A stretch of 64,000 nt of DNA, taken from positions 95,220-159,219 of the forward strand of contig CAWHXP010000009.1 in the NCBI GenBank assembly GCA_963833425.1. The letters are read 5' to 3'. Shown here piece by piece: positions 27,262-33,839 of this stretch; within the stretch, counting starts at the first letter, position 1; the number at the start of each line of letters is the position of its first letter. The notes below the pieces were generated by a model. That model had not been told where the DNA came from and made no database searches. It worked only from the letters and a program-made list of their open reading frames with translations. The stretch is from an uncultured Methanosarcinaceae archaeon (GTDB lineage Archaea; Halobacteriota; Methanosarcinia; Methanosarcinales; Methanosarcinaceae). The position numbers and the translations under genes are program-made.

Positions 27262-27362
27262 AAAAGACCTTCTGAAAAGCAAACATTTTGAAAGGAGCTG
27301 AGGTAGAAGCAAGTAATTTTGCTGGAGCTATACCTGAAAATTTGTATGCTTTCAATATTTAA

Positions 27363-27450
27363 GAGGATTTCGATAAAGACTAAATTTCATCTTACGCATA
27401 TAAACCATATATAAAAGACTCACGAAAATCAGAAATGTATCGAAAGTCTC
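27363..27450. repeat. 88-bp MITE flanked by TTAA on both sides
   Basis: TTAA|GAGGATTTCGATAAAG...ATGTATCGAAAGTCTC|TTAA. Confidence 0.8.
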
Positions 27451-27484
27451 TTAATATTCGATGGGAAGGAAAGATTTAGAATTT

Positions 27485-28235: not shown

Positions 28236-29264
28236 AATTACATATAATGATGAAAAAAACAGCAAACTAAATCCTCTGGAAACGATTGATGTTTCAGAAA
28301 CAAGAGAATTGAATAAAAAAATAATTCATAAGAAACTAATTCATGCAGTTACTAAAAGATATTCACAGTAGGAAAAGTTCTTGCTTATACTTTCAACTCA
28401 AAATAGTACCCTTTACCAACAATATAACTATTCTGATAATATCCGAAACAAATTTTTCCATAAAACGTCTGATATCTCATTTTATAAGCATAAATATTCG
28501 CATCCATCGTCCAGTTTTAGAGTACAAAGGTAGATTAAAATATAGATTCAGTGGTTGAGATCATTTATCTGAGAAGTTTCCTTCCAGAAGCAAGCTATGA
28601 GGTATTCGACTGAAATAAATTGCAACATCTGCAAGAATGTAGTTAATTCAACAATTTTAAATTATGCGAATCTAGTATTCAACCATTTAGAGAGCACTAT
28701 AAAATCAAGTTAAAGGGCTATTGCTTGGCTAACTAAATTACCTCAATACGCGAACAGATCATTTGTGGATATTCAGCTCGATCTTTTTCATTCTAAGGTA
28801 AAGTAAAAAAACGTCATTTGCTCTTGATCCAATGAAAATTAGATAATTGCACTTTAGGAGCATGCTCGGTTTTGTCCTAATGATATCTCCTTGATGACTA
28901 ATGTTCGTAGAAGTTACCAAATTCAACCAGGAATTTTAAGAACTACTTCGTGTTCTGAAATAAACTCACAAACGCTTGAATAAGCTTCAGACACACTTTT
29001 TTCATCCAATTTAGTGTTTTTTAGAATAGAGTTCATATTAACTATTTGTAATAAGAAATCATCGAACTTCTACATAATCTTTTATGGAATTCAGGCGATA
29101 AATTTCTACTATAGTTAGTTTTGAGAGTATCATCTCATCCAGGTAGAGTCTTAAAACGAAATTAACATCGAAAAAAATAAAAAAAGAAATTAATTTATGG
29201 TGATGCATGAGCATCGATTCATTTATTCTGGTTTCACGATATTGTTTGTTAATGATTGCGAGGT

Positions 29265-29699
29265 TTAACGTCCACGTCCGCCACGTCCGCCACGTCCGCC
29301 ACGTCCGCCCCAGCCTCGACCGCCCCAGCCGCCGTAGCCGCCGTAGCCGCCCCAGCCGCCGTTGCCCCAGCCCCAGGAGGGCCAGCCACCGTAGACGCCA
29401 TAGCCAAGACCGGCATAGCCAAGACCGCATGTACCTAGTCCAAGACCGCAAGCGTCAACGCCAACAACTGGATATCCGACGCCCCAGCCGCCCCAGCCGC
29501 CGTAGCCGCCCCAGCCGCCGTAGCCGCCCCAGCCGCCGTAGCCGCCCCAGCCGCCCCAGCCGCCTCGGCCGCCAAAGTGACCGCCACGACCTCCGCCACG
29601 ACCGCCTCTACTTCCATCAACAGCCACAGCTGCCAACGTTCCTACTACAAGAACTATAAGCAAAATAGCTAGTGCCTTTTTCATACTAATTTTTAACAT
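29265..29699 (-). CDS. Exported Gly/Trp/Tyr/Arg-rich low-complexity protein
   Basis: GGAGG RBS; basic then hydrophobic N-terminus; GGW/GGY and RGG repeats; GC-rich island of 9/18-nt repeats. Confidence 0.85.
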   Translation of the reverse strand: MLKISMKKALAILLIVLVVGTLAAVAVDGSRGGRGGGRGGHFGGRGGWGGWGGYGGWGGYGGWGGYGGWGGWGVGYPVVGVDACGLGLGTCGLGYAGLGYGVYGGWPSWGWGNGGWGGYGGYGGWGGRGWGGRGGRGGRGGRGR

Positions 29700-29918
29700 A
29701 TTATTTTTCCTCCGTTATTTTTAATAATTTTTAATACGAATCAAATACATAAATTAATAATATATAAATCTTGTTATTAAATACCTCTTATAAGCCAATA
29801 ACAATGCTTTTTAAAGCATCTATGTGGATAGCATCGAAAACCCAGATAGCATCGAAAACCCAACTACTTTTGGTTGAATTAAGCAGTGTATCGGGATGCT
29901 AGCTTTATTGAGCTTTCA

Positions 29919-30185
29919 TTAATCCATGAATGCTTTTACAGCTTTCATTAATTTGTGGTGGTGATGCATTTTATGGTGGTGATGCATTTTGTGGTGGTGA
30001 TGCATCTTGTGGTGATGATGCCCGAATATTTTAATCTTCTCCTTTTGCAGGATTATAATAGCTGTTTTCTTTTCCTTAACCACAACGGGTCCACAACTGT
30101 GTGCGCTTGCGGCGGCAGCTGTCACAGAAATTAAAAAACAAACTGCTAGCAGAATTCCAAGTGTCTTTCTCAATTGTTTTAACAT
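29919..30185 (-). CDS. Small exported His-rich protein, (HHHHK[M/L])x4
   Basis: GAGGT RBS; Sec-type signal ending AAASA; 18-nt repeats with synonymous variation at 29952-30020. Confidence 0.85.
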   Translation of the reverse strand: MLKQLRKTLGILLAVCFLISVTAAAASAHSCGPVVVKEKKTAIIILQKEKIKIFGHHHHKMHHHHKMHHHHKMHHHHKLMKAVKAFMD

Positions 30186-30336
30186 CTTTTTACCTCATTT
30201 CATTAAAACTAAATGTTTTTACCCATATCTTATGTGAGATTAAATTCCGATTTTTTTAGCAATTGTTTAAGGGCCCTTTACAGGGTTCCATAGTACCTAA
30301 AAGTACATCTTCTTCTTCATAGTACCTAAAAGTACT

Positions 30337-30796
30337 TCTTACAATTACAAGTGATTCTATTAAATGATTTGAATAAATATTTACTTGTAACAATTAGGGC
30401 AAATTGAATAAACAATTACTTAAAAAAATAGATTTATTTGGGCTATTAATTTTATAATAAAGCTTTCATAGCCCAATTAAGACTTTTTTTGCACACTATA
30501 AAGCTTTTTATTAAACGAAGAAAAATTTGATAAACATCAATTTTCACAAGTTATATATAAACAGCTACAGAATTTACAGGATTTTCAAAATACCTACAGG
30601 TGCTTCTGACAATTGCAAGTGATGAAAATAATTATCTTAAATAAAATAGTTAATTCTAAAAGTAGAAAAATTTAAATAAATATCAATTTTAAAAAATAAA
30701 TTTATTTGAGCTTTTAATTTTATAATAAAGCTTTAATAACTGAATTAATACTTTTTTGAATATTATAGAGTACTTTTATTAAATTAAAGAGGATTT
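30337..30796. repeat. Diverged direct duplication of a ~190-bp non-coding segment (30337-30528 / 30606-30796)
   Basis: Shared ACAATT(A/G)CAAGTGAT start and ATTTATTTG(G/A)GCT(A/T)TTAATTTTATAATAAAGCTTT core. Confidence 0.7.
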
Positions 30797-30823: not shown

Positions 30824-31921
30824 GGAATTCTGTCTAAATCTTTCTAGGAATATCTAAATTTGACTCTATTTTTCCTTTTAGGATTTATTATACCTTCATT
30901 TCAAAAAATAGCCCAAATTCTCCTTAATAAAGTTTCTTTTATTTTGAATGTAACCAAACGAAAAAGATCATGACAAAGATCATGACAAAAACCTGTACAC
31001 AACAACTTCAGATTCACTCTTTGAATAGTATGAACGATAATTTTTTCTGCTTTTAATATCCTTTTAATTACTGCATGAAATTATTTGCTCTGAAGAGTTG
31101 TTGAGCTATCTCCTTGTTTCTTAATGTGTCACTCTTTTCCAGAAAATACCCTTTTACTTCTTTTTTCATTGTCTTTTCATTAACGTTGTGATTTTGCTCC
31201 AAAGTACATTAACTCTCTGTAAACCACTTTATTTTTTCCAATAAATTTATCTGAAAATTATGAAGTGATGGAGTTGTTATTTTGAATCTTTTGATCAACT
31301 CGTAATCCTTGTCTGTTATGCTATGAAGTTCATATTCAAAGTGCGACTTGAATCCTTTTTTGTCAGGTTACAGCTATGCTTCTCCTTTTTTTGCTCCATT
31401 TTTTCGATCTCGATCCTTTTGCATTTCAAAGATTTGATTATTCTCCTTATTGCTTTCAAACCAAGGCAATAAAGTTGGCTTTGCAAATGTTCCCATATTT
31501 CTTCTTCTTTGTAGTTATCAATAACTTTTTTTCTAAATGATCAAACTATGGTGCTGCCTAGTATAACTCAAGAAAACCGATACATTTTTTGAAAGAAGTT
31601 AGATCGATACACTGTTCTTTAAGTTCAAAGAATGAAAGACCATGACATTGCCCTAAAACAAAAATTTTAAGCATAAAGACTACATTAACTTCAGATCTGC
31701 TTTGGGACATTGTTTTGTTATAAAATATATGGACTCAAAAATGATACGAAAAAATTTTAAATAAATAATGAATCAATTTCAGCAATTTCATCTCCAACTA
31801 ACTAAAGAAGTTTGTATTTTTCTTTAAGAATAAAGTCAGTAAGAGTCTTCATGAGTAAAAATTGATATTAAAAGATTGAAATTCTCCAATACTCAAATGC
31901 ATGGAGTTCATCGAAATTCTC
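30824..31921 (-). mobile_element. Older decayed IS5-family copy
   Basis: End GAGAATTTCGATGAACTCCATGC; start MKTLTDF; colinear with 17529-18649. Confidence 0.82.
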
Positions 31922-31955
31922 TTAAATCACCCTCTATAGCAAACCCATTCAGGGT

Positions 31956-33019: not shown

Positions 33020-33241
33020 CTGTTGATCTTCAAACTTATTTGTGGAAAAGCCATTTAACAGAATTGTTTAGGGATCGTATTAATAGTATCCTACACTTTG
33101 GTTCTTTTATTAAAAAAAAGAGGAGTTCTTAAAACCTCCAGTAACCCTGCAATTTTAAAATGCCGAAAATACATACCGGAAGTTTCAAATAAAGTGAAAA
33201 GCTCTGGCATACAAAAATGCGACGTCCCTTTTCAAACTAAT

Positions 33242-33330
33242 GAAGATTTAGACAAACCTTTGATTTTCAAAAGTCAAATAGATACCATTTATAAATAAAT
33301 GACAAAATATAAAGGTTCATCGAAATCTTC
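33242..33330. repeat. 89-bp MITE
   Basis: GAAGATTTAGACAAACC...GGTTCATCGAAATCTTC. Confidence 0.75.
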
Positions 33331-33839
33331 TAAAATTGGATAAAACACTTTGTTGTAGATCATTTTCAGAAGGAAACAGACTATAAGCAATTTTAGAATC
33401 ATTGCTTCTTTTTTTCTTCCCGTACATCAAGTGATTCCTTCCTCCAACAATCATGAATAAAGCTTAATTGTACTTAACTCCTTAAATATAAAATTATCCA
33501 CAAAATCTTCAAATTTCACTTGTAAACCATCTAAACTTAAAAAGCAGTGATAGAAATTTTTCGAGCTCATCAATGGTAAGAATTAATCTGTAATTTTTCT
33601 CAAATTTACCAGTTAAACCTCAAATTCCTTCAAGACATCAGAGCAGAATAGAAAATAATCGATCCTTCCTTTACTCATTTGAAGATTTCACATCCCTGTC
33701 TTTATACCCCACTAACTCTTGATGTACGAGACATGAGAGCTCATGGGAGATCTTAACTCATTTCATTTAGCTGGGCCAAAGCATCAATTACCTGTTCAGG
33801 TCCCAGACACAAAAATTGCTTTACATATTTAATCAAAGG

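Follow-up and report, generated by a model that had tools for sequence, protein, structure and literature searches.

The gene analyzed in this study lies in a 64,000-nt stretch of the genome of an uncultured Methanosarcinaceae archaeon (G000), which as a whole is called the window below. The features of the locus, with the evidence for each, are as follows.

29265..29699, minus strand: open reading frame of 144 amino acids, rich in Gly, Trp, Tyr, and Arg, with a mirror layout (composition, symmetry test)
29613..29699, minus strand: family leader, residues 1-29, with a KK n-region and hydrophobic residues 9-27 (alignment, hydropathy, and the leader family profile, which matches residues 1-31 with E 3e-11)
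29565..29612, minus strand: N-terminal RGG block, residues 30-45 (sequence)
29484..29564, minus strand: first aromatic arm, nine GGW/GGY triplets, residues 46-72 (sequence)
29391..29483, minus strand: aliphatic core, residues 73-103, with Cys84 and Cys91 and GLG(Y) motifs (sequence, symmetry test)
29319..29390, minus strand: second aromatic arm, residues 104-127, less regular than the first (sequence)
29268..29318, minus strand: C-terminal RGG block, residues 128-144 (sequence)
29709..29713, minus strand: ribosome-binding site GGAGG, 9 nt before the ATG (sequence)
29171..29189, minus strand: T-rich tract past the stop codon, candidate archaeal terminator (sequence)
29919..30185, minus strand: upstream neighbour of 88 amino acids from the same leader family, with (HHHHK)n cargo, 219 nt away (leader profile)
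28396..29741, no strand assigned: 1.35-kb segment duplicated at G000:C7:266284-267565, 89% identical, carrying a twin of the gene (genome comparison)

The order of elements in the protein, that is, leader, RGG block, GGW/GGY arm, two-cysteine core, second arm, and second RGG block, is as given in a preliminary description of this DNA, and the mirror-like architecture, the glycine content of about one half, and the GC-rich patch noted there are borne out as well. The whole reading frame contains 64 Gly (44%), 12 Trp, 10 Arg, 9 Tyr, 2 Cys, and 1 His, and no tryptic sites fall within its aromatic arms; in residues 30-144 glycine rises to 62 of 115 (54%), with 10 Arg and a single Asp, and the protein has a net charge of about +9. 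The symmetry, measured on composition by residue classes and not as a palindrome residue by residue, reaches r = 0.84, a value attained in none of 3000 shuffles of 9-residue blocks. The GC content peaks at 0.70 over the gene versus ~0.3 around it, because 45 of the 64 Gly codons are GGC (17% of Gly codons genome-wide) and these are amplified in 9- and 18-nt tandem units. The codon bias (9/14 C-ending codons; family 0.41, genome 0.35, 95th percentile 0.51) is uninformative and gives no clear sign of high expression.

No family match to the protein was found in Pfam and NCBIfam at E up to 1, and the PDB sequence search, the phage search, and the Rfam search likewise gave no match; a scan for promoters and terminators remained at chance level. 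Seven homologs were retrieved with the protein as query, three of them matching by the family leader and four by composition. AlphaFold2 produced no fold (pLDDT 42.6 for the single sequence and 42.0 with seven sequences), and the mature 115-residue chain is predicted to be unfolded. In the ESM Atlas, the homolog P0002 gave a best feature score of 0.86 to unnamed clusters, which we take as a lead only.

Hydropathy identifies one hydrophobic segment, residues 9-27 (mean 2.99), the next best segment scoring 1.3, and in the leader alignment a small-x-small C-region follows the hydrophobic stretch. Family leaders end in ...ASA, as does the leader of the major S-layer protein of the same genome, and the AVDG of the leader studied here aligns with AVEA and ASA in close members. 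These features point to an ordinary leader of the Sec/signal-peptidase-I type and to export by that route, with a predicted cut after ...AVDG (versus ...ASA in the family) or after AVA. The mature M. barkeri S-layer protein has been mapped to start at residue 25 (PMC3361143), and signal peptidase I cuts just past the H domain, prepilin peptidases before it (PMC6098224). The preliminary description had noted that KKA/LA loosely fits class III (pilin-type) cleavage; a pilin-like protein cut there would keep its hydrophobic N-terminus and enter a filament. The motif is present, but when the family was scanned with a FlaFind-like pattern, it occurred in just 8 of the 69 members of at least 60 amino acids and was absent from the mirror proteins of the related genomes G019, G064, and G067. 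With no pilin family match and no pilus genes nearby in the window, a pilin-like protein has hardly any chance of being the right reading.

The leader belongs to a large family. A profile built from 29 leaders and run as a six-frame search of G000 found 98 matches, and none on reversed frames; 69 of these copies have at least 60 amino acids and the other 29 are shorter stubs. Of the 59 genus genomes, 58 match this profile. A draw across the order, at E 1e-5, detected the leader in 42/45 genus genomes versus 2/205 others; by this sampling of sequences, the family is Methanosarcina-specific. Against 1.84 billion representatives, the profile matched 1033 clusters, and of ten that were looked up, two are named, all names being "hypothetical protein". 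One member is an unannotated protein of M. acetivorans, AAM05387. Pfam and NCBIfam contain no model for the leader family. Among 46 proteins scanned, the Pfam models over the cut-off were Pentapeptide_2 (one member), Yae1_N (one), globular passengers, and a neighbouring radical SAM enzyme, which was also the sole NCBIfam match over the cut-off among 43 proteins scanned. Nor was a description of the family found in the open-access papers searched.

As a control against bias, a second profile was built from five genomes that do not belong to the clade of G000 (24 leaders). It gave at least 85 matches in G000, at least 84 in G019, at least 97 in G064, at least 91 in G065, and at least 123 in G067, with 38 in the fragmented genome G055; in the other 53 genomes the median is 13 (range 0-34). 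The family is multiplied about sixfold in the lineage of G000. In a tree of rpoA1 from 51 genomes, in which G000 is a partial row and from which G065 is missing for want of the marker, G000, G019, G055, G064, and G067 form one clade (100/100) with low GC3, and the expansion is one evolutionary event. In the branch that includes the M. acetivorans-like genome the median is 4.5 (n = 16), and in the other branch, without the clade, it is 16 (n = 30), which is again a single contrast.

Within G000, 40 of the 98 copies lie no more than 3 kb from another one, compared with 12.8 expected by chance. Ribosome-binding sites of the GGAGTG type precede 14/43 members versus 12/504 background regions, and the word GTATCAAA is found in the 5' leader of 10/43 members versus 12/504 background regions. 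A shared upstream regulator motif was considered and rejected, as just the ribosome-binding words and GTATCAAA stood out. A 200-nt AT-rich direct repeat (76%) lies upstream of two family genes in the window (30316-30515 and 30584-30783), and its third copy is found beside another member at C15:22291, possibly reflecting duplication of promoter regions. Family evolution appears to proceed through duplication, slippage of repeats, and the swapping of cargos from one leader to another.

The host is a Methanosarcina; its assembly comprises 4.07 Mb in 21 contigs (80% complete) and is gene-poor, with 46% in ATG-started reading frames of at least 100 amino acids. A decayed transposase element (DUF772), to which well over a hundred fragments of the genome are related, occupies 30970-31930 in the window; a further element of 85-100 nt, seen at 27352-27457 and 33234-33345, has many copies genome-wide. 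Some GC-rich, bacterial-looking genes with high C-ending codons, including a sigma-54 activator, were observed at L173:13634-15900 (G000:C15), C12:5437-11547, and C3:619330-623781, and are probably due to contamination or chimeric contig ends. The major S-layer gene (G000:C14:101617-103608, L251) encodes 663 amino acids with PGF-CTERM; it was not found in G064 and is partial in G055. PF07752 matches number 1-3 in the genomes of the clade versus 4-21 elsewhere, and the accessory DUF1608 paralogs (~870 and ~1160 amino acids), which G050 and G056 have, were not found in the clade. They were likewise not found in G005, which has 32 leader matches. The idea that the leader family replaces the S-layer was rejected, the major S-layer gene being intact in G000, G019, G065, and G067 and the leader and PF07752 counts being uncorrelated outside the clade (rho -0.03, n = 53).

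The history of the gene can be followed through its twin at C7:266316-266699. All five indels between the twins inside the reading frame are multiples of 3, and one 2-nt indel lies downstream. The twin cargos differ by dN 0.046 versus dS 0.06, so that dN/dS is near 1 and the pair near neutral, on few sites. The C7 site has its flanking genes and downstream DNA in common with a G065 locus holding a related protein, and the slot in the window varies among relatives, being empty in G019 and G064 and occupied by a non-mirror Gly/Trp member in G067; the copy in the window is therefore likely recent. In 11 of 11 cross-genome pairs, dN/dS is below 1 in both leader and cargo; pooled over these pairs, it is 0.28 for the leader and 0.31 for the cargo, the latter a rough value from alignments of repeats, with RNase P at 0.07 as a control. 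For the gene and the G064 mirror protein, the dN/dS comparison gave 0.24/1.23 and 0.34/0.62. Members of the family are under purifying selection.

These observations bear on a serious rival explanation, namely that the expansion is mostly drift: a cassette of strong ribosome-binding site and leader would have been copied in a decaying, transposon-rich genome, a few members would work, and the copy in the window would be a dispensable recent duplicate. The decay of the genome and the proportion of stubs are what make it serious, and the clustering of copies, the low coding density, the loss of accessory S-layer genes, the near-neutral twins, and the unstable slot all agree with it. Nonetheless, the pooled dN/dS of ~0.3, the retention of cargo subfamilies in several clade genomes, the recurrence of the mirror design on different leaders (see below), and the growth of the family while other genes were lost argue against it, and we consider drift as the main explanation unlikely. 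Part of the expansion may be drift, because so many of the copies are shorter than 60 amino acids in a gene-poor genome with many transposase remnants.

The mirror design was followed in nine hand-picked proteins, six of which are significantly symmetric: both copies in G000, one each in G019 and G064, and two in G067. Symmetry is not significant in the other three (L188 of G065, L201 of G064, and the gene in the G067 slot). In G000, 5 of 54 members are mirror-like. In the recurring plan, the ends are basic or rich in His, the arms are Gly-aromatic, and the core is aliphatic and contains a pair of Cys; the sequence of the core changes, and the mirror relatives have His in place of Arg at their ends. 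When the 59 genomes were searched with a profile of the mature chains, four matched, and all four belong to the clade. In a tree of 58 leader regions, of low resolution, the leader of the G064 mirror protein groups with non-mirror cargos (100/98), which suggests either cargo exchange or repeated origin. As mirror cargos sit on different leaders in three relatives, the mirror layout is not a conserved domain but a design that recurs.

The cargos of the family are small and mostly repetitive, with Gly-aromatic, Gly-Cys, Gly-His, Gly-Asn, Tyr-Pro-Asn, and Pro-Val/Ser repeats. A silk-like rule, at least 25% Gly per 80 residues, is satisfied by 15/69 members versus 2/1288 other reading frames of at least 200 amino acids. 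Even numbers of cysteines were found in 20/23 cases versus 268/466 (p = 0.004), the members counted being related paralogs, and the tendency is weaker in outside representatives (38/55). Several further cargos were observed. The same leader is found on alpha/beta hydrolases and a thioredoxin, identified by Pfam, and on a cupredoxin and a YbhB-like protein, recognized by eye (loci of globular passengers: G000:C8:439511, C7:344655, C8:143896, and C9:15055). Member L170 (G000:C7:231874-232479) has (PATAAT)n repeats, and its relatives L189-L192 keep the N-terminus and the period of 6 but read (PAVGAV)n; the idea of an antifreeze glycoprotein was rejected on account of the latter repeats. L205 (G067:C14) and the member at G000:C8:237354 have PVTT/VEVPV repeat cores, weakly similar to alveolin (IMCp 19.3 bits, cut-off 21.1) and to lamprin arms. 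Outside the clade (L115-L142; G041, G044, G047, G048, and G073), the cargos are mostly Lys/Trp/Asp/Asn, GYxxGY, and KDKCDW repeats, not Gly/Trp.

Peptide arsenals typically combine a conserved leader with variable cargo, and some antimicrobials are rich in Gly. The preliminary description had named an antimicrobial precursor as an alternative, and a secreted competition peptide, that is, a cationic Gly/Trp chain binding the membranes or nucleic acids of neighbours, would fit both the hypervariable cargos and the charge of the protein together with its 12 Trp. But among 52 low-complexity cargos, just 11 are clearly cationic (32 are near neutral and 9 anionic), the mirror relatives have His ends and not Arg ends, and no repeated immunity, protease, or transporter neighbour was seen in the family regions read by eye. 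The alternative is thus weaker than before, and we regard it as improbable.

Similarly, the many His- and Cys-rich cargos, the neighbour with HHHHK repeats, and the location of some members near NikR and CbiM genes could indicate extracellular scavenging or buffering of metals or oxidants through His and Cys, in which the member studied here would take part by its Cys pair and aromatic residues. This appears quite improbable, as the protein has one His and two Cys, many cargos have neither residue, and no consistent gene linkage was seen in the 20 family regions read by eye, where neither an anchor nor a common neighbouring enzyme was seen.

A precursor of an enzyme-modified peptide was also considered, with either a WGN cyclophane, as in the GrrA/OscA precursors of the GrrM/OscB maturase (TIGR04261), or YcaO heterocycles. 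Like those precursors, the protein is a Gly-rich chain with a WGN word, once here and twice in the twin, and a TIGR04083 radical SAM gene adjoins one member in G000. Unlike them, it has no maturase over the cut-off and its WGN is not conserved: GrrM is over the cut-off in 0/5 clade genomes and is not found near the gene in the window, and WGN occurs in 1/126 outside representatives. The TIGR04083 gene is a single copy in 57/59 genomes with a member nearby at 0/30 non-clade loci, and the one YcaO lies beside TfuA. Modification of this kind is very improbable.

The mixed charge of the cargos, the even cysteine numbers, the clustering, the lack of a common enzyme, and the anionic capsule of the host together lead us to infer an extracellular structural role. 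For the protein itself, we give about an even chance to the reading that it is a structural protein, exported and unfolded, with aromatic arms that self-associate and arginine ends that bind an anionic capsule polymer. The exported structural or matrix protein of the preliminary description thus remains the best reading, now with evidence from the family, its selection, and its distribution, whereas the pilin-type route proposed with it is unsupported. After predicted Sec export and loss of the leader, a 115-residue Gly-rich chain would remain outside the cell, likely as part of a mesh that it forms with dozens of sister proteins outside the S-layer. The two GGW/GGY arms would stick together via their aromatic residues, a disulfide may form in the central core, and the two arginine-rich ends could grip an anionic polymer, for instance methanochondroitin or extracellular DNA. 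Being sticky at either end, the chain would serve as a two-ended cross-linker. Cells of Methanosarcina form aggregates within an anionic capsule, which has been linked to survival of oxygen and drying (PMC12369344), and by analogy, most exported proteins of animals in which Gly makes up at least 25% of 80 residues are material-forming (PMC4944945). Cross-linking by a laccase was rejected: PF07731 is found in 1/59 genomes, and there is no clade-wide copper oxidase. A bolder extension, which we consider improbable, is that ~70 intact exported low-complexity proteins build a multi-protein outer coat for surviving drying and oxygen, with the mirror protein as its two-ended amyloid or coacervate cross-linker. 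If true, the coat would resemble the egg coat of an insect or the coat of a spore and would form a resting-cell wall in a group said to form no spores.

According to PMC12904285, methanogens form no spores, and their means of surviving oxygen and drying are largely unknown; the Methanosarcina capsule is described in PMC12369344 as a polysaccharide whose genes are unidentified. Exported repetitive proteins specific to the genus are candidates for a protein component of the capsule or of stress survival that can be tested now: complete genomes have just 4-18 leader matches each, and one member is the M. acetivorans protein mentioned above, which would make deletion of the entire set feasible in a model species. 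As a compact natural two-ended sticker-spacer design, the mirror protein would also be of interest for biomaterials.

Several known systems resemble the protein and its family. The chorion proteins of Lepidoptera have Gly/Tyr arms with GYGGL-like repeats, and GYGGL-like words are found in the relatives L188 and L199. Chorion is likewise built from a large lineage-expanded family of paralogs, with a central segment and variable flanks as here, and forms a protective coat (PMC13252134); in contrast, its proteins have a conserved 51-residue central amyloid domain, whereas here the cores differ and the leader alone is common. No chorion Pfam match was found for the protein (E up to 1) or for the relatives scanned. 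Sulfur globule proteins are rich in Gly, Tyr, and Trp. SgpA, SgpB, and SgpC of Allochromatium vinosum are small Sec-exported prokaryotic structural proteins that form an envelope and are likened to keratins and plant wall proteins (PMC10386293); they differ in having a few genes per genome and in serving sulfur oxidation in Proteobacteria, compared with ~100 copies in a methanogen. The protein has no Pfam or NCBIfam match to Sgp, and none is named among its seven homologs. The silk-like class of SilkSlider (PMC4944945) resembles the protein in its signal peptide, absence of a further membrane segment, Gly content of at least 25% in 80 residues, and GGX repeats; it is a class defined by composition, in animals, and immunity genes are among its known false positives. 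The glycine content here is the 62 in 115 mature residues given above, and the signal peptide and lack of other membrane segments are judged by hydropathy and alignment only. For the plant glycine-rich family PF07172, there is no match for the protein, and relatives score 17.9-19.9 versus a cut-off of 30 bits. By analogy, the protein would work like the chorion, sulfur globule, silk-like, and plant glycine-rich proteins, without being a member of these groups by sequence match.
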